From Enterobacteria phage GEC-3S, in the sequence record HE978309: DNA of 64,000 nt. One strand, 5' to 3'. Shown one piece after another: positions 21,554-29,636 of this stretch. Made by a program: the position numbers and the translations under genes. Positions within the stretch are counted from its first letter, which is position 1. Each line of letters opens with the position of its first letter. The notes beneath the pieces were generated by a model that worked only from the letters and a program-made list of their open reading frames with translations, searched no databases and was not told where the DNA came from.

Positions 21554-21795
21554 ATACGACCCTTTAACCCAGCACAGATTTTAGTCGGTTCTTTACCGTG
21601 CCACATTAAGTAAAGTCCGTTAATGCGACCTTGTTTTGTGTGTGATTCTTTTCTGATCTTCTTATAGTGTCGTGCTTCCTCAACTGATTGTTTAGAATAC
21701 CAATCATAAAGGAAGAGGCACAAAGGCCAACCATTAGCGGCCTTAATGCAGTTATTAAGAAATTCCTTATTGCGTTTAATTAATTTTCTTTTCAC
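21550..21795 (-). CDS. Hypothetical basic protein (81 aa), GTG start
   Basis: GTGA overlap with upstream gene and ATGA overlap with downstream gene. Confidence 0.45.
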   Translation of the reverse strand: MKRKLIKRNKEFLNNCIKAANGWPLCLFLYDWYSKQSVEEARHYKKIRKESHTKQGRINGLYLMWHGKEPTKICAGLKGRI

Positions 21796-22043
21796 GCTGC
21801 CCCCGTTGGTTTGATAGTAACAGAATCTAAAAGACCTTTGTTAGCCAGTTCGCGGCAAGTTTTCAGATCCGCAACTTCCCAGCCAGCCGCAATCAGGTTA
21901 TCAATCAGGCTGTTAGCAACTTCTTCGCTCATGAAAGAGCACTGTTTGCCGATGGTGTAGCGTACACGCTGTAATTTCAGTTTACGGAAGCCTTTAACGT
22001 TCAGGTCTTTAGCGATTTTCTTTGCGGTTTCGATGTTAGCCAT
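21792..22043 (-). CDS. Hypothetical protein (83 aa), first gene of five-gene operon
   Basis: Own sigma70-like promoter and GGAGAATCAA RBS. Confidence 0.55.
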   Translation of the reverse strand: MANIETAKKIAKDLNVKGFRKLKLQRVRYTIGKQCSFMSEEVANSLIDNLIAAGWEVADLKTCRELANKGLLDSVTIKPTGAA

Positions 22044-22083
22044 TGTTTGATTCTCCTAAGTGGTATCTCGTCTTGATGGTTGT

Positions 22084-22113
22084 ATTGTAGGGGAGTTATC
22101 CTCCCCTGTCAAC
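22084..22113 (-). promoter_or_regulatory. Sigma70-like early promoter with palindromic spacer
   Basis: TTGACA - GGGGAGGATAACTCCCC - TACAAT on minus strand. Confidence 0.6.
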
Positions 22114-22126
22114 ACTTTTTATAAAA

Positions 22127-22294
22127 TTATTTGTTAATTTCTGGTGCGTTGCTAGGATAGTAACCTTCTTTAACTCCGAGGTATTTCGCAACCATCCCTA
22201 CAATCTTCTGTGCTACTACAATGTCAAATTTCAGATAATCTTCGCCGTAGGTTTCAATGATATATGCTTCACATGCTGCTTTAGTCTCGAACAT
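22127..22294 (-). CDS. Hypothetical early protein (55 aa); paralog of 25403..25570
   Basis: MFETKAACEAYIIETYGEDYLKFDIVVAQKIVGMVAKYLGVKEGYYPSNAPEINK; near-identical C-terminus to 25403..25570. Confidence 0.45.
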   Translation of the reverse strand: MFETKAACEAYIIETYGEDYLKFDIVVAQKIVGMVAKYLGVKEGYYPSNAPEINK

Positions 22295-22329
22295 TTTGAT
22301 TCTCCTATATTTCGTTTCGGTATGGGTGT

Positions 22330-22359
22330 ATTATAGGGGATCTCCCGATCCCCGTCAAC
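22330..22359 (-). promoter_or_regulatory. Sigma70-like early promoter with palindromic spacer
   Basis: TTGACG - GGGGATCGGGAGATCCCC - TATAAT on minus strand. Confidence 0.6.
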
Positions 22360-22372
22360 AACTTTTTTAAAA

Positions 22373-22654
22373 TTATTCGTGATTAGTTTCGATGTTGTGC
22401 ATTTTGCACCAGTTCAGCCAATCGACCAGGTCTTGATAGTTGATGCTTTTATCTGCTGCCATCGTTTTTGTCTTGATACCCATATGTGCGTTATGAGTAA
22501 GCATTTTTACAGTGAACTCAATTTTATCGCCTTTAGCTTTAACATCAACCAGTTTGGTCCACTGGCTACCAGCGCCGCGAATGTTCATGCCAACGATGTT
22601 TCCGATGTATGCTTCTTTGTTTTTCAGGATTTCGGTTGCTTTGATGAATTTCAT
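22373..22654 (-). CDS. Hypothetical early protein (93 aa)
   Basis: ORF with own promoter and GGAGAATCAAA RBS. Confidence 0.55.
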   Translation of the reverse strand: MKFIKATEILKNKEAYIGNIVGMNIRGAGSQWTKLVDVKAKGDKIEFTVKMLTHNAHMGIKTKTMAADKSINYQDLVDWLNWCKMHNIETNHE

Positions 22655-22687
22655 TTTTGATTCTCCAGTTCGTTTCGGTATGGGTGT

Positions 22688-22717
22688 ATTATGCTATGTT
22701 CTTACTTTGGTGTCAAC
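22688..22717 (-). promoter_or_regulatory. Sigma70-like early promoter
   Basis: TTGACA - 17 nt - CATAAT on minus strand. Confidence 0.55.
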
Positions 22718-22724
22718 AACTTTT

Positions 22725-22994
22725 TTAGATATTTTCAGAAATAAATTTTAAAACTTGACGTAAATGTTTCTCATCTTTGATAGTCGCCGGAAGTTCTTCT
22801 TTTACTTCCTGTGCAAGATAGATATTTCCGTTCCAAGTGAAAGATCCGTCTTCGTTTACGCGATAGCTGAACATCCACTCGCAATCATTTTCGATTTCAT
22901 ATACACATAGAAGAGTATAATCTTCAAAGCTATTGATTTCAAGGTCGAAGCCGTGACGTTTTGCAAAGTTGGTAGTGGTTTTAGTCAGTGCCAT
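22725..22994 (-). CDS. Hypothetical early protein (89 aa)
   Basis: ORF with own promoter and GGAGAATCAAA RBS. Confidence 0.55.
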   Translation of the reverse strand: MALTKTTTNFAKRHGFDLEINSFEDYTLLCVYEIENDCEWMFSYRVNEDGSFTWNGNIYLAQEVKEELPATIKDEKHLRQVLKFISENI

Positions 22995-23034
22995 TGTTTG
23001 ATTCTCCTAAGTGGTATCTCGTTTCGATGGGTGT

Positions 23035-23065
23035 ATTATGCTATAGGCGTGATCTGGTGTCAATT
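23035..23065 (-). promoter_or_regulatory. Sigma70-like early promoter
   Basis: TTGACA - 18 nt - CATAAT on minus strand. Confidence 0.5.
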
Positions 23066-23086
23066 CTTTTTTTAAATTTTATGCAA

Positions 23087-23116
23087 TAAAAAAGCCGACG
23101 CTATGGTCGGCTAATA
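23087..23116 (-). terminator. Hairpin terminator after 23120..23428
   Basis: A-run then GCCGAC-GCTATG-GTCGGC on plus strand. Confidence 0.5.
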
Positions 23117-23119
23117 AAA

Positions 23120-23428
23120 TCATTTAGACAAATAATCATTCAGTGCAATCCGGTCGGCGTATGCTGGTGTTACGTCAATCGCAATCACTTTAACGCGTGC
23201 TTTCTTGCGACCTGGGTTTTCACGTAACCAGTGCTCATGACCGTGAACATTTTTATACTGCGATGCTTCTTCGAAGGTACGGATCGGACCTGGGTAATCA
23301 GCGTAAAGGATCTCTAGATCTTCGGTGATGTAAAAATATACATCGTAATTGCTGTTCTCTAGCTTAAGCAGAGACTTTCGGAACATTGGGAGATTTTCGC
23401 GGGTAAATTCAAAGATATTATCTTTCAT
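23120..23428 (-). CDS. HxHW-motif family protein (paralog 1 of 6)
   Basis: VHGHEHWL...VKVIAIDVTPAYADRIA shared pattern with five other ORFs. Confidence 0.55.
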   Translation of the reverse strand: MKDNIFEFTRENLPMFRKSLLKLENSNYDVYFYITEDLEILYADYPGPIRTFEEASQYKNVHGHEHWLRENPGRKKARVKVIAIDVTPAYADRIALNDYLSK

Positions 23429-23452
23429 AGTATTATCCTCAATAGTTGGATG

Positions 23453-23472
23453 AAAAGGGGCGTTAACGCCCC
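23453..23472 (-). terminator. Hairpin after 23479..23766
   Basis: AAAA-GGGGCG-TTAA-CGCCCC on plus strand. Confidence 0.45.
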
Positions 23473-23478
23473 CATATA

Positions 23479-23766
23479 TTAAAACAGTCCTTCCTGTACA
23501 CCGTAGTAGAGTTCGTCGCTGATAATTTCATTAATGCGACGGTGTGCATATTCCTGATTTGCGAAGTTGTCAGCAAGTTCTATTTTAGTTTCGCCGTCAT
23601 GAGTCCATTTAGTGATAACTTTACCATCTGCAAATTTGAAGTTGAACTCTTTAGCTACTGCATCGCGTACCAGACGTGCAAACTTATTGTTGCGGATTGC
23701 ATTGTCGGTTTCGTGTGCAGCGTGAGCAAATTTGTTAACTTTCAGAGTGATAGTGATGTATGCCAT
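23479..23766 (-). CDS. Hypothetical early protein (95 aa); shares AKEFN motif with 26806..27117
   Basis: ORF with own promoter and GGAGAATCAAA RBS. Confidence 0.55.
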   Translation of the reverse strand: MAYITITLKVNKFAHAAHETDNAIRNNKFARLVRDAVAKEFNFKFADGKVITKWTHDGETKIELADNFANQEYAHRRINEIISDELYYGVQEGLF

Positions 23767-23812
23767 AATTTGATTCTCCTAGTTAGAAAGTGTATCTCGT
23801 TTCGATGGGGAT

Positions 23813-23842
23813 ATTATGCTATATCCCCGATCCGGTGTCAAC
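23813..23842 (-). promoter_or_regulatory. Sigma70-like early promoter, palindrome spanning -10
   Basis: TTGACA ... GGGGATAT-AGCATA-ATATCCCC containing CATAAT. Confidence 0.55.
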
Positions 23843-23847
23843 ACTTT

Positions 23848-24126
23848 TTATAAAATAATTTTTTGATATTTTTCTATGATGTTCGTGTAAGTCACATCAA
23901 CCGCTAGCACTGTTGCTTCGAATCCACCGTTTAGCCAATGGCTATGATCATGGTCGTGAAAGAAACCTAGACCAGTACGAAGACCTTCTTTATATTCTGC
24001 GCGTACATTCAGTTTGTCGTCGATAAACAGATAAAACCATGAATTTTTACTAGGATTGATGATACAACCTTTCAGATTAGGGAGAATATCACGACTAAGA
24101 ATAAACTTATCACCTACTTTGAACAT
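23848..24126 (-). CDS. HxHW-motif family protein (paralog 2)
   Basis: FHDHDHSHWL...TVLAVDVT; internal ATG at 24126 with GAGGA RBS. Confidence 0.55.
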   Translation of the reverse strand: MFKVGDKFILSRDILPNLKGCIINPSKNSWFYLFIDDKLNVRAEYKEGLRTGLGFFHDHDHSHWLNGGFEATVLAVDVTYTNIIEKYQKIIL

Positions 24127-24130
24127 AATA

Positions 24131-24451
24131 TTAGTCCTCACTTATAAGGTCAAACCAATTGTTTTTCGCATAATGCTTAATGCGTGCTTGATCTGCTTCC
24201 GCTGGTGATAGATTCCATGCAACCACTACAACTTCTGACGCATCGTCATCAGTTTCCGATACCCAATGATTGTGATTCATACAGTTATTTGCTATCGAGT
24301 GAGCAAATGATTTCATCACTGGAGACGTATAATCATAGTAACGGATTTTCAGATTTTCATCAACATACAAATAGATCGTATAAGGTTTATATTCAGTAAC
24401 AAGTAACAGACAGTTACGCAATTCTGGGAAAATCTTTTTAGTTAATTTCAT
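24131..24451 (-). CDS. HxHW-motif family protein (paralog 3)
   Basis: MNHNHWVSE...VVVVAWNLSPAEADQA. Confidence 0.55.
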   Translation of the reverse strand: MKLTKKIFPELRNCLLLVTEYKPYTIYLYVDENLKIRYYDYTSPVMKSFAHSIANNCMNHNHWVSETDDDASEVVVVAWNLSPAEADQARIKHYAKNNWFDLISED

Positions 24452-24653
24452 ATTCTAGTTCTCCGTAATACACGGTAATCCATTTTTCTTCATATTTTGT
24501 ATCTTTCCAGCACACAATACCGTTTACTGTGCAATCTTTGGAATTGACGAATGATTCATATTGTTCCGCATCTTCCATCATTTCATGAGCGGTCTTTTCA
24601 TCGAATATATCGCAGATCGCTTTATATGCTCGATAATCTTTAAATTTGCTCAT
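24438..24653 (-). CDS. Hypothetical small protein (71 aa); tandem paralog of 24656..24865
   Basis: Both start MSKFKDY[RK]AY; internal ATG at 24653. Confidence 0.45.
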   Translation of the reverse strand: MSKFKDYRAYKAICDIFDEKTAHEMMEDAEQYESFVNSKDCTVNGIVCWKDTKYEEKWITVYYGELEYEIN

Positions 24654-24655
24654 AA

Positions 24656-24865
24656 TTAACACCACTCAAGAGTTTTTGAAAACACATCTATCCATTGTTG
24701 AGTATATGCGGTTTCTTTCCATGATACAATACCAGTCGAATAATGGTTTTTGTTTCCAGAAAAGGACGGGCATTTTGATGCATCTTCCATCATCTTTTCG
24801 GCGAACTCTGGTTCGTATACTCGCAAGATCTGTTGATATGCTTTATAATCTTTAAACTTACTCAT
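24656..24865 (-). CDS. Hypothetical small protein (69 aa); tandem paralog of 24438..24653
   Basis: ATGA overlap with upstream gene. Confidence 0.5.
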   Translation of the reverse strand: MSKFKDYKAYQQILRVYEPEFAEKMMEDASKCPSFSGNKNHYSTGIVSWKETAYTQQWIDVFSKTLEWC

Positions 24866-25146
24866 AACAACACCACCGATACATCGTAATCATTCGCGAC
24901 CTTATCGGCTTCTTCAACCGACATAATACCTTCTGCGACAATTGGCATAGGGTGATCGTGATTCCACCAATGGTCATGTATATCAATTTCAGTTTTGCCG
25001 GAAAATGAATCATGTTTGACGTTTTTCACTTTATACCCGATGTGACCGTCGTGGTCAATAAAGATATAGTTTCCGAAAATCGGTGTCTGTAAAATCATAC
25101 CGAAAAATTTTTCTTTGTTGTTCGGGTCGAGTGTAATCATTTTCAT
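24862..25146 (-). CDS. HxHW-motif family protein (paralog 4)
   Basis: IDIHDHWWNHDH...AEGIMSVEEADKVA; AAGAGG RBS. Confidence 0.55.
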   Translation of the reverse strand: MKMITLDPNNKEKFFGMILQTPIFGNYIFIDHDGHIGYKVKNVKHDSFSGKTEIDIHDHWWNHDHPMPIVAEGIMSVEEADKVANDYDVSVVLL

Positions 25147-25158
25147 AATATATTCCTC

Positions 25159-25338
25159 TTAGAAAGGGATGGTCATTTCTTGAGCTTGTACATTCTCGTT
25201 AGGATTAAACTTCATCCAACCGATATTGTCTACCAGCATATGCACATTTTTATCATATCCTACGTGAGTAGTCAACACTAAATGTGCTTTACATTCAACG
25301 ATGATTTCCATGTACTTCTGAACTTCGATAGCTTTCAT
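25159..25338 (-). CDS. Hypothetical early protein (59 aa)
   Basis: MKAIEVQKYMEIIVECKAHLVLTTHVGYDKNVHMLVDNIGWMKF...; GGAGAATCAAA RBS; below ORF-track cutoff. Confidence 0.45.
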   Translation of the reverse strand: MKAIEVQKYMEIIVECKAHLVLTTHVGYDKNVHMLVDNIGWMKFNPNENVQAQEMTIPF

Positions 25339-25370
25339 TTTGATTCTCCGTTTGTTGTCTTGATGGGAGT

Positions 25371-25400
25371 ATCTTACTACTCCCTTTAATCATTGTCAAC
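25371..25400 (-). promoter_or_regulatory. Sigma70-like early promoter (GGGAGTA...TACTCCC palindrome around -10)
   Basis: TTGACA - 17 nt - TAAGAT; palindrome identical to copies near 35.02 and 61.85 kb. Confidence 0.5.
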
Positions 25401-25402
25401 GA

Positions 25403-25570
25403 TTATTTGTTAATTTCTGGTGCGTTGCTCGGATAGTAACCTTCTTTAACACCCAGATATTTTGCAACCATTCCGGTGATCTTCTGTGCTACTACGATAT
25501 CGAATTTCAGGTAGTCTTCACCGTGGTTTGCTACAATGTATGCTTCGCATTCTGCTTTAGTCTGGAACAT
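25403..25570 (-). CDS. Hypothetical early protein (55 aa); paralog of 22127..22294
   Basis: MFQTKAECEAYIVANHGEDYLKFDIVVAQKITGMVAKYLGVKEGYYPSNAPEINK; internal ATG of ORF-track ORF 25403..25636. Confidence 0.5.
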   Translation of the reverse strand: MFQTKAECEAYIVANHGEDYLKFDIVVAQKITGMVAKYLGVKEGYYPSNAPEINK

Positions 25571-25604
25571 TTTTGATTCTCCTATATCTCGTTGGTATGT
25601 GTGT

Positions 25605-25634
25605 AGTATAGGGGATCGGTGATCCCCTGTCAAC
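25605..25634 (-). promoter_or_regulatory. Sigma70-like early promoter with palindromic spacer
   Basis: TTGACA - GGGGATCACCGATCCCC - TATACT on minus strand. Confidence 0.6.
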
Positions 25635-25641
25635 AACTTTT

Positions 25642-25950
25642 TTATTCTTCATCTTCATTTTTATCTTTATATGCGTACTTCATAAATTTGTCTGCTACTT
25701 TGTCCGCGTTTTCAGGTTCTACGTCTGACGCTAGGACAACAGCTAGTTCGGTTTTGTCGTTTCCGTCATACCAATGATTATGAGTGTCGTTTTCTTCGAT
25801 ATAAAACGAATCATTTGGAGTTGTTCGACAATATACGTCTAAATTCCCATCGATATAAAAGATCCAATCCGAATACAAAATGATTGCTTTAGCCAGATTT
25901 TTATTGTCTCTTACAAAAGGTTCCGCGACAAATAGCTTAGTTTGTTCCAT
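25642..25950 (-). CDS. HxHW-motif family protein (paralog 5)
   Basis: NDTHNHWYDG...ELAVVLASDVEPENADKVA; ATG at 25950 with GAGGAA RBS. Confidence 0.55.
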   Translation of the reverse strand: MEQTKLFVAEPFVRDNKNLAKAIILYSDWIFYIDGNLDVYCRTTPNDSFYIEENDTHNHWYDGNDKTELAVVLASDVEPENADKVADKFMKYAYKDKNEDEE

Positions 25951-25966
25951 AATATTTTCCTCAAAA

Positions 25967-26158
25967 TTATACAGCTTCGTAAACTTCCCAATGTTCAGCG
26001 CCAACACGCTTAACGAAAAGGTTTTCTTTGATGTTATTCATAAACGTCTGGATAGATTTAATGCGGTTGGAAGGTTTCCAGTCTTCGTTGGCATTGCGGC
26101 GATACATAATAACATTACCAGTTCGCTTATATTCAGCAACCATTTTAAGATCACACAT
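25967..26158 (-). CDS. Hypothetical small protein (63 aa)
   Basis: ORF with GAGGA RBS. Confidence 0.45.
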   Translation of the reverse strand: MCDLKMVAEYKRTGNVIMYRRNANEDWKPSNRIKSIQTFMNNIKENLFVKRVGAEHWEVYEAV

Positions 26159-26215
26159 AATATTATCCTCAATTTGTGGGAGAGTATTACCCCTCCCAAT
26201 GATTGTTATGTTATA

Positions 26216-26536
26216 TCACACAAAATGGCGTGTCAATGCTTCTTTTGCGGTTCCGCTAAGACTTTCGATCTCGCCTGGCATAACATCAACCGCCAGAACT
26301 TCGACAACATCCTCGGACCCTAACCAGTGAGTATGGCCTTTGTAGAACTTGATAACCAGACTACCTTCCTCATCCCATTTAACGCTATCGCTAGCCCACC
26401 ACACATCACCGTCGATAAAGTTGATGTAAAGCACACTACGCCACATTGAATTAATTACTTTCAATACTGCGCCTTTCATCTCTTCCACGGTATGGTCTTC
26501 CATTTTGAAGACCTCACCTACCTGAACTTTTGCCAT
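26216..26536 (-). CDS. HxHW-motif family protein (paralog 6)
   Basis: YKGHTHWLGSEDVVEVLAVDVMP; GAGAGGTGA RBS. Confidence 0.55.
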   Translation of the reverse strand: MAKVQVGEVFKMEDHTVEEMKGAVLKVINSMWRSVLYINFIDGDVWWASDSVKWDEEGSLVIKFYKGHTHWLGSEDVVEVLAVDVMPGEIESLSGTAKEALTRHFV

Positions 26537-26553
26537 TTAGTCACCTCTCTTTA

Positions 26554-26733
26554 TTACATAACAATCACGCCAGCCGTTGAAAGTTGATGTTTCAACTGAG
26601 CATTTTCTGCTACCGTCAAATCAATGATTTCTTGTGACGCTGCAATCATATATCCATTGGTGATATTGTTTTGCATCAGTTCAATGGTTTCTTCGTTGTA
26701 GCGGATTTTAGCGATGATTTCGTTGAAGTTCAT
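26554..26733 (-). CDS. Hypothetical early protein (59 aa)
   Basis: MNFNEIIAKIRYNEETIELMQNNITNGYMIAASQEIIDLTVAENAQLKHQ...; GGAGAATCAATC RBS; below ORF-track cutoff. Confidence 0.45.
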   Translation of the reverse strand: MNFNEIIAKIRYNEETIELMQNNITNGYMIAASQEIIDLTVAENAQLKHQLSTAGVIVM

Positions 26734-26767
26734 GATTGATTCTCCTAGTTCGTTTCGGTATGTGTGT

Positions 26768-26798
26768 ATTATAGGGGATCTCCCGATCCCCTGTCAAC
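26768..26798 (-). promoter_or_regulatory. Sigma70-like early promoter with palindromic spacer
   Basis: TTGACA - GGGGATCGGGAGATCCCC - TATAAT on minus strand. Confidence 0.6.
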
Positions 26799-26805
26799 AA
26801 CTTTT

Positions 26806-27117
26806 TTAAAGTTTTTCCATGATAACGGTCATAATTACATCTTCTGCGCGAGCGGTCAGATTATCAGCGTCAGCATGTGGGCGGTTGGTTGTTACAGAGA
26901 TAGCACCGTTGCGCACTGGTTTGATATTGATATCAAGATGATCCGCGAAACGTTCGCCAGTTACAGAATGAATTTTGGTGTTAAATTCTTTTGCCAGTGC
27001 CTTGCGAACTTCACGAATCAGGGTAGCGTTTTTCAGTTGGTTCTCCGCGCTCATGGTCTTCTGGGTGTTCATGGTTCCGTCGAAGTCAATCATTGGCAGC
27101 GTTACGATGTATTTCAT
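26806..27117 (-). CDS. Hypothetical early protein (103 aa)
   Basis: ORF with own promoter and GGAGAATCAAA RBS. Confidence 0.55.
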   Translation of the reverse strand: MKYIVTLPMIDFDGTMNTQKTMSAENQLKNATLIREVRKALAKEFNTKIHSVTGERFADHLDINIKPVRNGAISVTTNRPHADADNLTARAEDVIMTVIMEKL

Positions 27118-27162
27118 TTTTGATTCTCCGTTTAAGAAAGTGTGTTTCGTTTTGATGTGTGT

Positions 27163-27193
27163 ATTATAAGGGGATCACCGATCCCCTGTCAAC
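27163..27193 (-). promoter_or_regulatory. Sigma70-like early promoter with palindromic spacer
   Basis: TTGACA - GGGGATCGGTGATCCCC - TATAAT on minus strand. Confidence 0.6.
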
Positions 27194-27204
27194 AACTTTT
27201 TGAA

Positions 27205-27681
27205 TTATTTTTCTTGATGCTCGCGCTCGTACTTTTCGAAATAAAATTCTACTGGCTGATCGTGGATTGAAAGCAAGCCAAAGCGTTTAGCCGCTCGCAA
27301 TCCCATATTGCGCTGAATGTACTTCTGGAAGTTCTCGCGTATACACTTACGCCAGTATTCTAAGCCCATACAGCTTTTATAAAGATTGCATTGCACACAC
27401 GCCGGATTCATGTTATCAAGTATATCATGTTCCGGTTTATGCATTCCTACAACCTTATACTTCCACGATCCATCATCATTACGGGCAATTCGTCCATTTT
27501 CATCATAGACTACCTTTGAGCGTCGCAATACTGGTTTGATATGGTCTGCGTGCCAGCGATCCCCTAGTTCCTCGCCACAATAGGCACAACGCCCACCGTA
27601 TTTCATTTTCAGGATCTGGCGTTGCTCTTTCTTTGACAATTTTTTAGGTTTAGGGGCTTTCGCCCCTTCATTATCACACAT
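27205..27681 (-). CDS. HNH homing-endonuclease-like protein
   Basis: CAYCG ... WHADHIKP ... CVQCN (HNH-type Cys/His motifs); overlaps 3' end of ligase gene by 8 nt. Confidence 0.7.
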   Translation of the reverse strand: MCDNEGAKAPKPKKLSKKEQRQILKMKYGGRCAYCGEELGDRWHADHIKPVLRRSKVVYDENGRIARNDDGSWKYKVVGMHKPEHDILDNMNPACVQCNLYKSCMGLEYWRKCIRENFQKYIQRNMGLRAAKRFGLLSIHDQPVEFYFEKYEREHQEK

Positions 27682-29170
27682 CGAATACCTCTTTTACTGT
27701 ATTTGCCGTGGTCTTGTCGTAGCGAATACGTTTGATGATCGGGAGAAATAAAGAGAACTCCGGTTCATCTTCTTTACGTGATTTGCTGCGAATGTACCCG
27801 TTGCATGTCATCTCAATGACTTTTCCGACCAGGTTATGCCGTTCAGCCCATAACATTTCTCGGTCAAGTTCATTTCGACGATCGAACGGAATTACACGTT
27901 CAGTACCATCATCACCTTTTTCGGTTGTAGTGTCGGTTAATCCCGATCCGGTGTTAGTCATCATTCGTCCGCACGCACTACGGACAGTAAAACCGCCTAC
28001 CTTATTGGGGTCTTTACTATGCGGATATACATCAACAATTTCCGCGTCGAAGTCAATAACTTCTTTAAATTTAACCTGATCTTTACTGCGACGATCTTCA
28101 AATACACCATGTAAATTTTTAAGGATAATACCTTCTAAGCCCATGTTTACATAGCGATGATATACTTCGCGAGCTTCATCGATATTGTTAACTACGGTAT
28201 TTTCGATTATCTGAACACGAGGATCGTTAAGTTCTTCAACAATCTGTTTTAGTTCTTCGAATCGATCTTTATATTGCTTCGTTGCTTTCTCGTTTCCGTA
28301 ATACACATCACGGTCGATAACATCCCAGACAGTGTAAACAATACATTGGGCTTCTTCTTTTGGAATAGTTCCTTTCAGTGATTTGTTGAGGATACCATTT
28401 CCGGTCTGACGATCTGCAACAACGGATTCTTTCACCGCTTCCGCTACTGGCGTTAATGGCATTTCCTCTTCTTCAAATATCCATGACAGAGTACCATCAT
28501 AAACGCTCTCAACGAAGTTCTGCGCTGGTGTTTGCGAAAGGGTAGGCATATATACCAATTCGCCATCTAGAACAATTCCACGGCCTCGTAGACGCTCTAA
28601 AACCGCAAACAAATCATCAAGCCCTTGATAGGTATTACCTGAGCGGGTATAGATTGCTAATGTTTCCCCGTCAATATCAGCCATACCACGAGCGCCATCG
28701 CTTTTAAGTTGTGCATACGCCGGATACTTGATATTAGAAATAGTCTTATCAGAACATGACGATGCAAGGTGGCACGGTTGCTGAGGGATCAGTTTCTTCC
28801 ATACCTTGTTTGCAGTGGTAGCGGAACAACCGCATTCCAGGTCACGATTCAGGACCATCATTGCAACTTTAGCATCATCCTCTGACAAGCAAGTCAGAGT
28901 ATCGGTAACTAGCTGTAATGCTGCGTTGCCAGTTACTTGACGCGTGGCAAGTTTATTTTTAAAGACCTGTAATGCACCGGATAAAGACAATACAGACGAA
29001 TAGCGAGATGGTTTATCGTATTTCTTTACGCCAAACGTAACCTGTTTGCAATATGCCAGATAAAAGCATTCTTTCAGCGTTTCATTGCTCGCGGATTCTT
29101 TCAGAATCTTTTCTTTCAGCGATGTTTTGTCTGTTGCTGCAAGCTGATTAATGATATTAAGAATTGACAT
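27674..29170 (-). CDS. 30: ATP-dependent DNA ligase gp30
   Basis: Aligns with T4 DNA ligase (AQLKSDGAR KxDG site; TRQVTGNAA; NRDLECG; ANKSLKGTI.KEEAQC; EGIILKN); ATG at 29170 with GAGGTG RBS. Confidence 0.93.
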   Translation of the reverse strand: MSILNIINQLAATDKTSLKEKILKESASNETLKECFYLAYCKQVTFGVKKYDKPSRYSSVLSLSGALQVFKNKLATRQVTGNAALQLVTDTLTCLSEDDAKVAMMVLNRDLECGCSATTANKVWKKLIPQQPCHLASSCSDKTISNIKYPAYAQLKSDGARGMADIDGETLAIYTRSGNTYQGLDDLFAVLERLRGRGIVLDGELVYMPTLSQTPAQNFVESVYDGTLSWIFEEEEMPLTPVAEAVKESVVADRQTGNGILNKSLKGTIPKEEAQCIVYTVWDVIDRDVYYGNEKATKQYKDRFEELKQIVEELNDPRVQIIENTVVNNIDEAREVYHRYVNMGLEGIILKNLHGVFEDRRSKDQVKFKEVIDFDAEIVDVYPHSKDPNKVGGFTVRSACGRMMTNTGSGLTDTTTEKGDDGTERVIPFDRRNELDREMLWAERHNLVGKVIEMTCNGYIRSKSRKEDEPEFSLFLPIIKRIRYDKTTANTVKEVFDV

Positions 29171-29636
29171 TTTCACCTCGTTTTGTTAAACGTTCACGAA
29201 TATCATTGAGGATACTACAAAATTCCGATTCAGTCAATATAGTCTTTAACGGATCTGTTCCACCTATACTATGACGCAATTTCTTATTTCCGGTAGCGAG
29301 TAATGCTTTACAAAATTCTGGGTTATTCCGTGCCATCGTAACAAATGCCAGATGTACCAGTCTGTAATAATGCTCACTCATTCGATGAATCGGGCGACCC
29401 TGAAAATATAGCATGTGATTCTCTATCTTTTCAGTCCTTCCGGTTCTTTTTGCTTTGCCACCGTGCATCAAAAAGATTTCTCTTTGTCTCTGGGGGTTCT
29501 TGAATCTTAATCCCTGTAAAAATCCTTCTGTGCTGTTAATATCGCAACCAAATAGACGGAATGGTCTTTTATTGAAATTACTCAATTCACCCGATGGATA
29601 AGGTCCACCCGCATAGATATCAATTTCATAAGTCAT
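29157..29636 (-). CDS. NADAR (YbiA-like) domain protein
   Basis: SNFNKRPF, STEGFLQGLRF, KALLATGNKKL...GG resemble NADAR family motifs; function inferred. Confidence 0.5.
   Translation of the reverse strand: MTYEIDIYAGGPYPSGELSNFNKRPFRLFGCDINSTEGFLQGLRFKNPQRQREIFLMHGGKAKRTGRTEKIENHMLYFQGRPIHRMSEHYYRLVHLAFVTMARNNPEFCKALLATGNKKLRHSIGGTDPLKTILTESEFCSILNDIRERLTKRGENVNS

Follow-up and report, generated by a model that had tools for sequence, protein, structure and literature searches.

Six orphan genes of a Krischvirus variable region form one lineage-restricted family with an invariant His-Trp site

Here, we examined an array of six small open reading frames (ORFs), denoted F1–F6, in a stretch of 64,000 nucleotides (nt) from Enterobacteria phage GEC-3S (record HE978309; hereafter, the window). 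All six prove to be genuine coding sequences and belong to a single lineage-restricted family, whose small, soluble and mostly acidic products (~90–110 amino acids, aa) comprise an alpha/beta domain. The family members share a predicted fold and a single invariant site, a His-Trp pair in an H-x-H-W motif. Six apparent orphans are thereby joined in a single family that is undescribed as such in the literature we searched. An earlier note, made from the sequence alone, had singled out six minus-strand ORFs of 92–106 aa as divergent paralogs sharing a His-rich motif; all six are present at the positions given in Table 1. Database matches to the 5.2 kb around the array number 57, all in RB49-like coliphages or Shigella phages of the genus Krischvirus; identity is 98.8% to Escherichia phage Phi1 and 90–95% to most of these records. 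In Phi1, the counterparts of the six ORFs are ORF197, 199, 200, 203, 206 and 208, all on the minus strand and annotated as hypothetical proteins, and the array is flanked by DNA ligase gene 30 and an HNH endonuclease gene on one side and by a DNA methyltransferase gene and alt on the other. The locus is one of the hyperplastic regions of RB49 and Phi1, and its ORFs have been handled as unrelated ORFans, with paralogy unmentioned (Arbiol et al. 2010, PMC2839356); an earlier comparative genome paper on these phages does not mention a six-copy family either (PMC1524935). Literature searches by locus tag, by protein accession and with 'Krischvirus + anti-defense' returned nothing on the family.

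The relatedness of the six proteins is apparent from several lines of evidence. In a MAFFT alignment, the H-x-H-W motifs fall into a single set of columns, with H64, H66, W67 and V81 (F1 numbering) invariant and only 21–32% identity to the first sequence. When hidden Markov models (HMMs) were built from five copies, the omitted sixth was in each case the best non-training match among the 616 ORFs of the window (E 2e-5 to 8e-14), against a background of E >= 0.01 for all remaining ORFs. Furthermore, a single PHROGs profile, phrog_9345, matches all six proteins, and Foldseek links the paralogs to one another among predicted viral structures (BFVD). Thus, the proposal of a real six-member paralog family is borne out, as are the positional conservation of the motif and the shared architecture, which consists of an N-terminal beta segment, HxHW and a hydrophobic V(L/I)AxDV strand, with a C-terminal helix besides. 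The motif itself is narrower than had been described: H-x-H-W is common to the six, but the extra His residues of HGHEHW, HDHSHW and HDHWWNHDH are not kept between orthologues. H66 and W67 never vary across all 20 divergent family sequences available to us, and H64 hardly does, the remainder being 14–34% identical. Six-frame translation of the window contains eight occurrences of H.HW (mean of 1.5 in shuffled sequence), six of them inside the family ORFs. The seventh (HSHW, window position 309) lies within a 32-aa ORF without family similarity and was dismissed as chance, and the eighth is interrupted by a stop codon. A DNA-level repeat as the source of the motif was likewise rejected: the motif codons vary among the copies (cac and cat mixed), so that conservation operates at the protein level.

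All six genes are preceded, 6–10 nt upstream of the start, by a Shine-Dalgarno-like GAGG or GGAG; for F2, an alternative GTG start at 24141 would yield 97 aa. The products have a grand average of hydropathy of zero or below, isoelectric points of 4.4–6.9 and no hydrophobic stretches, and are therefore most probably cytoplasmic. An AlphaFold2 model of F1, computed from a 28-sequence alignment, reached a mean predicted local distance difference test (pLDDT) score of 86.7 and a predicted template-modelling score of 0.81. In this model, a short strand (residues 5–7) and a helical turn (13–16) lead into a three-stranded meander (19–23, 29–34 and 40–45), followed by two short helices (52–62), the HxHW turn (64–68), coil, the V(L/I)AxDV strand (78–84) and a C-terminal helix (88–100) that opens with a conserved (E)AD. 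The HxHW turn, located between the beta-meander and the last strand, belongs to the least confident block of the model (pLDDT ~70), and residues 44–62, immediately before the motif, are the most variable segment in length and sequence, both within orthogroups and between paralogs. The predicted common fold is without a solved relative: Foldseek comparison of the F1 model with the PDB yielded nothing below E 0.4, a profile search of PDB sequences gave a single match at E 0.52, so that neither sequence profile nor fold led to a family of solved structure, and BFVD returned the other Krischvirus paralogs at high probability and little else of note. The best structural match, over 62 aligned residues, is Tis1, the small alpha+beta immunity protein of the type VI effector Tas1 (PDB 6ox6_B). 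We also considered a capsid-targeting N-terminus as in T4 internal proteins and rejected it, given that the N-termini are unconserved among the paralogs and form the first strand of the fold.

The strong divergence of the copies outside the motif had suggested diversifying selection, an explanation that comparison of orthologues does not support. We compared the array in the window and in 12 other Krischvirus-type genomes, one record of which (L014) ends before F1. The ratio of nonsynonymous to synonymous substitution rates (dN/dS), pooled over pairwise comparisons of orthologues from 9–11 genomes, is 0.10–0.24 (Table 1) for five of the six copies, the alleles of F4 (ORF203) being too different to be scored. 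These values are within the range of neighbouring genes (0.03–0.55, with 0.035 for the ligase gene), and, when the motif, the 20 residues preceding it, the 10 residues following it and the remainder of each gene were scored separately, the maximum was 0.53, with no sub-region above 1. Each copy is separately held by purifying selection, as computed here for five of the six. Moreover, in the 12 genomes that could be read across the entire array, profiles detect six positions between ligase and alt, always in the same order, frameshifted and allele-replaced copies included. In the divergent 2.1-kb contig L002, homologues of F6, F4 and F3 (50%, 29% and 44% identity, respectively) are already distinct and occur in the same order, so that the duplications predate the split from the L002 lineage.

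Superimposed on this stable layout is extensive allelic variation. The Phi1-type alleles of F4, one of which is carried in the window, are only 56–61% identical in protein sequence to the RB49-type alleles (e.g., L007 3894–4181), with nearly identical flanking genes, and F5 alleles are 68–72% identical to each other, those of the RB49 type carrying SNHW. In JSE (L013 5680–6353) and two metagenomic genomes (L016 7663–8327; L018 8001–8674), the block from ORF201 through F3 to F2 is replaced by two F3-like genes of 107 aa and 108–111 aa, 45–58% identical to F3; F2 is missing there and the copy number is still six. Over the window interval 21792–29176 and in the same genome set, dS varies more than thirty-fold between adjacent genes (0.015 for ORF210, 0.05 for ORF209, 0.50 for F5 and 0.55 for ORF201), which argues for fine-grained mosaic recombination. 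Judging from these sequences, the copies derive from old tandem duplication, and variety in the population arises from the swapping of copies for deeply divergent alleles. Given the low dN/dS of the orthologues, the six retained positions and the paralogs already distinct in L002, divergence of the family thus reflects old duplication and allele replacement rather than detectable ongoing positive selection. The JSE orthologues of F5 and F1 (L013 4416–4710 and 6763–7070) are each split into two annotated ORFs, owing to a frameshift or a sequencing error.

In its distribution, the family is limited to Krischvirus (RB49/Phi1-type phages) and a few uncultured relatives. A word-indexed search of 5.8 billion proteins produced 86 clusters, all of them orthologues (at least 69% identity) of one of the six copies, and an HMMER profile search of 1.84 billion cluster representatives recovered only 19 proteins at E <= 0.001, none of which comes from outside Krischvirus-type phages and uncultured relatives. 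Repeating the word-indexed search with the widened alignment added no members, scans of IMG/VR with two distant members yielded nothing, and scans of Pfam, NCBIfam and PADLOC gave only sub-threshold chance matches (PROCT, TTL, Cupin_2, T4_Y03C and ISL3). No T4 protein and no bacterial protein was detectable as a family member in these protein searches, and neither profile nor fold searches matched a characterised family, in agreement with the initial impression that the family is not one known from T4. Apart from a metagenome label on one F2 orthologue (P0073), the source name of the cluster members is hypothetical protein. Family records labelled as Escherichia coli or Bacillus are phage contigs of 163–166 kb; one member of cluster P0017, deposited as Bacillus atrophaeus protein WP_239815954.1, has the same sequence on contigs of up to ~163 kb, and is almost certainly coliphage contamination of the Bacillus atrophaeus assembly.

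The more distant members extend the same picture. Both divergent contigs with readable flanks place the family between ligase gene 30 and alt; one of them, the uncultured T4-like contig L004, encodes two copies there, beside T4-type genes, and its ligase DNA is ~71% identical to that of Krischvirus. Contig L002 packs five family domains: homologues of ORF209, F6 and ORF204 come first, in this order, followed by a fused double domain (P0087) and then by homologues of F4 and F3. P0087 (203 aa; L002 823–1434) is a natural tandem fusion of two family domains with HNHW in each; a single-sequence AlphaFold prediction of it, aimed at the dimer interface, reached a pLDDT of only 34. Two further divergent sequences, P0089 and P0090, are alternative alleles within complete genomes of ~170 kb. 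In addition, an 88-aa gene missing from the window is located just upstream of the F6 orthologue in JSE (L013 3563–3829) and three other genomes (L012 3645–3911; L016 5581–5847; L018 5918–6184). It is probably a very divergent seventh family member, with a Foldseek match to the F1 model (E 8.6e-3, probability 1.0), an hhalign E of 0.006 and an HMM score of only 5 bits.

The array is embedded in a promoter-rich landscape. The interval 22084–27192 contains nine minus-strand sigma-70-type promoter sites matching 10–12 of the 12 consensus positions, eight strong and one weaker, most of them with a G/C stem-loop (GGGG...CCCC) between the −35 and −10 hexamers (Table 1). These promoter cassettes constitute repeat families of 60–70 nt (D1, D2 and D4) and continue into a conserved leader ending in AGGAGAATCAAA before the ATG. 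Such promoters with embedded stem-loops (PeSLs) have been described in the corresponding region of RB49 and Phi1 as early promoters (Arbiol et al. 2010, PMC2839356). Four transcription units cover the array: promoter 26797, ORF209, F6, a stem-loop, ORF207 and F5; promoter 25633 and ORF205; promoter 25399, ORF204, F4, ORF202, ORF201, F3 and F2, with overlapping or abutting stops and starts; and promoter 23841, ORF198, a stem-loop, F1 and the terminator, which is annotated at the same place in phage G2248. All six family members are second or later in their unit, with ORF209, ORF204 or ORF198 directly behind the promoter; never being first after a PeSL, they are not simple PeSL-plus-ORF cassettes. 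The two stem-loops within units, one before F1 (23455–23473, minus strand; GGGGGCG-UUAA-CGCCCCC followed by UUUUC; −14 kcal/mol) and one just after F6 (26176–26199, minus strand; GGGAGGGG...CUCUCCC; −15.7 kcal/mol), may be attenuators or processing sites.

Table 1. Family genes, promoters and terminator of the array (window positions; dN/dS, orthologue comparison; ORF numbers as in Phi1)
Feature	Positions	Strand	Product and motif	Evidence and remarks
F1 (ORF197)	23120-23428	minus	102 aa; HGHEHW, HEHW codons 23239-23228	phrog_9345 E 4.5e-49; leave-one-out HMM E 1.9e-12; dN/dS 0.24
F2 (ORF199)	23848-24126	minus	92 aa from ATG; HDHDHSHW, HSHW codons 23946-23935	phrog_17255 E 2.3e-65 and phrog_9345 E 7e-5; leave-one-out HMM E 2.1e-8; dN/dS 0.10
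F3 (ORF200)	24131-24451	minus	106 aa; HNHW 24274-24263	phrog_9345 E 4.2e-52; leave-one-out HMM E 8.2e-14; dN/dS 0.20; start overlaps ORF201 end
F4 (ORF203)	24862-25146	minus	94 aa; HDHWWNHDH, HDHW 24978-24967	phrog_15972 E 1e-53; leave-one-out HMM E 1.8e-5; Phi1-type allele
F5 (ORF206)	25642-25950	minus	102 aa from ATG; HNHW 25782-25771	phrog_15965 E 7.7e-59 and phrog_9345 E 2e-6; leave-one-out HMM E 5.2e-8; dN/dS 0.24, dS 0.50; most acidic copy, isoelectric point 4.4
F6 (ORF208)	26216-26536	minus	106 aa; HTHW 26335-26324	phrog_16486 E 1.7e-72 and weak phrog_9345 and phrog_17255 matches; leave-one-out HMM E 2e-6; dN/dS 0.13
Nine promoters, first hexamers	27192, 26797, 25633, 25399, 23841, 23063, 22716, 22358, 22112	minus		
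PeSL sigma-70-type early promoter	26768-26797	minus		12/12 consensus; repeat families D1 and D4; stem-loop GGGGATC...GATCCCC
Weaker promoter-like site with stem-loop	25371-25399	minus		10/12 consensus
PeSL promoter	23813-23841	minus		11/12 consensus; repeat families D1 and D2
Intrinsic terminator directly after F1, closing the array	23093-23112	minus		−11.5 kcal/mol, z-score −4.6, then U run

Several neighbouring genes show dynamics of their own. ORF191 (22126–22297) and ORF205 (25402–25573), minus-strand genes encoding 55 aa each, are 87% identical in protein and 85% identical in DNA over 172 nt, and each lies directly behind its own promoter/stem-loop cassette, which looks like a recent duplication of the whole cassette-plus-gene unit. 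Between F4 and F3, ORF201 (24438–24653) and ORF202 (24656–24865), also on the minus strand, are tandem paralogs with 46% identity, both beginning with MSKFKDY; the divergent contig L003 has a homologue (95–331) immediately upstream of a family member, and another is found in L004 (9451–9660). A likeness of ORF198 to ORF210 noticed by eye was rejected, there being no similarity by BLASTP. At the ligase end, the HNH endonuclease gene (27205–27681) and DNA ligase gene 30 (27674–29176), both on the minus strand, overlap by 8 nt, the former beginning inside the end of the latter; an extra 114-aa gene, ORF211, follows the HNH gene in RB49, JSE and G2248 and is missing from the window and Phi1. Scanning of the region for Rfam families and tRNAs gave no match.

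With regard to function, where the earlier note had suggested a metal-binding or interaction scaffold, we tentatively favour a reading in which the products are early accessory effectors with one shared ligand or metal site and differing specificities. They would be non-essential and act early, in the host cytoplasm, with the invariant His-Trp loop (usually H-x-H-W) performing one chemical function common to all copies, namely, binding of a metal ion or a small ligand, for example, of the nucleotide type, at a site possibly formed across a dimer, as hinted by the two-domain fusion P0087. The hypervariable segment before the motif, along with other surfaces, would confer a separate target or specificity on each paralog, so that the array would widen the range of things that the phage can neutralise or modify across hosts. 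The sole invariant polar residue of the family is the His next to the invariant Trp, in a poorly ordered loop adjoining the segment of greatest variability, and a shared metal or small-ligand site therefore fits better than six unrelated protein-binding surfaces. Several observations weigh against this interpretation. Only two His residues are widely conserved in the family, and some alleles do without one of these: the first His gives way to Ser in two orthologue clusters and in the RB49-type alleles of ORF206 (F5), in RB49 itself and several other genomes, and to Asp in the distant member P0088. There is neither an invariant third metal ligand nor a conserved Cys, and in the 'DV' strand some copies have Asn or Gly in place of Asp. 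In the probable seventh paralog of JSE-type phages, GNGHLIN replaces HxHW, with both the first His and the Trp missing. The His-Trp pair could be purely structural, and early expression, as assumed here, is deduced from the promoters only. A more specific variant, in which an HxHW loop on an unrecognised fold binds a metal or a nucleotide-type signal, and the six or seven copies form an early battery for counter-defence or host takeover, for example, sponges or inhibitors with different specificities, appears rather unlikely.

Doubtful, but a possibility to be reckoned with, is that the family consists of pure protein-binding inhibitors or modulators, each paralog binding a different host or defence protein by means of its variable surfaces and the His-Trp pair being the structural keystone rather than a ligand site; on this account, the array would resemble immunity or anti-defence gene arrays. 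Indeed, most characterised T4 early proteins of ~100 aa bind proteins (AsiA, Arn, Dmd, PinA and Stp), and the strong divergence of the paralogs outside the core, the swapping of divergent alleles at several array positions and the dispensability of the first His in some alleles all fit, yet a structural role poorly explains why His is the only invariant polar residue and why it resides in the least confident loop, adjoining the most variable segment. It is improbable that the proteins are small metal-dependent enzymes of the hydrolase type, in which H-x-H and acidic residues of neighbouring strands would form a catalytic metal site, with substrates differing by paralog. HxH on a strand or loop with a nearby Asp is a common metal-site pattern in known metalloenzymes, HFHW of alpha-carbonic anhydrase being an example that includes the Trp; in F1 and F2, the motif is lengthened to three or four alternating His, and acidic residues are recurrent features of the beta3-beta4 turn and of the 'DV' and 'EAD' motifs. 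However, the candidate third ligands are not invariant, natural alleles have Ser for the first His, and ~95 residues is small for an independent enzyme. Quite improbable, too, are KOW/SH3-like barrels that would redirect host gene expression by docking on nucleic acid, the ribosome or RNA polymerase. Metagenome annotation names P0073 'KOW2-KOW3 domains of Spt5', F2 and F6 start with V-G-D/E-x-F...K-G, which resembles a KOW motif, and the model contains five strands and a helix; nevertheless, none of the 20 members matches a Pfam KOW profile at E <= 1, and the acidic character of most copies speaks against nucleic-acid binding. Finally, the ORFs could be functionless passengers riding on recombining promoter cassettes, in a region that is a known shuffling hot-spot with repeated promoter/stem-loop cassettes and in which the JSE copies of F1 and F5 appear frameshifted. 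The low dN/dS of the five scorable copies, the motif kept invariant over deep divergence, the six copies retained in the same order in all 12 genomes and the fact that no family member directly adjoins a promoter cassette make this very improbable.

Many host-takeover and anti-defence functions of T4-like phages have been traced to small early genes of their variable regions, and most such genes are still orphans. The recognition of one family with one invariant His-Trp site, without a solved fold relative and under purifying selection, turns scattered hypothetical proteins into a defined target for structural, ligand and defence-panel work. Moreover, the locus is a clear case of diversity generated through old duplication and allele replacement rather than measurable positive selection. 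Should the counter-defence battery prove real, the proteins would represent a new anti-defence family unique to RB49-like phages; should the genes have no phenotype, they would be an ordinary lineage-specific orphan family.

Comparison with characterised systems sets the family apart from several groups that it superficially resembles. Screening of PADLOC-DB defence profiles with 20 members matched no family at E <= 1. The zinc site of alpha-carbonic anhydrase, His94-Phe-His96-Trp97 (HFHW), has the same contiguous H-x-H-W pattern, but the likeness is confined to the motif: the family is without a third conserved His, its proteins are only ~95 aa long, and there is no structural match. Nor does the family belong with KOW/SH3-like barrels of the Spt5/NusG type, given neither profile nor structural similarity, or with cupins, for which a single member matched Cupin_2 at E 0.19 (11.9 bits, against a cut-off of 27.2), with no cupin in the fold searches. 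The histidine-triad (HIT) pattern, H-phi-H-phi-H-phi-phi, differs as well: the residues between the His are polar here (N, D, T, S, E and G), and no Pfam HIT match was obtained. In PHROGs, each of the six proteins fits one family of unknown function end to end (9345, 17255, 15972, 15965 or 16486; E ~1e-49 to 1e-72), so that these five separate entries without function correspond here to one family with a common predicted fold and motif. Even so, lineage-specific orphan families like this one are common in the variable regions of phages. Its closest counterparts by location are the cassettes of PeSL and ORFan described by Arbiol et al. (2010), which involve the same region and the same genes, ORF197–208, and the same abundance of promoters with G/C stem-loops; none of the six members, however, is itself directly flanked by a PeSL. 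More broadly, the exchange of alleles between otherwise near-identical genomes is shared with polymorphic accessory phage loci. T4 internal-protein loci and anti-CRISPR or immunity-gene arrays are clusters of small, fast-diverging, non-essential genes. The present array differs from polymorphic accessory loci in that all its units are mutually homologous and carry an invariant motif.

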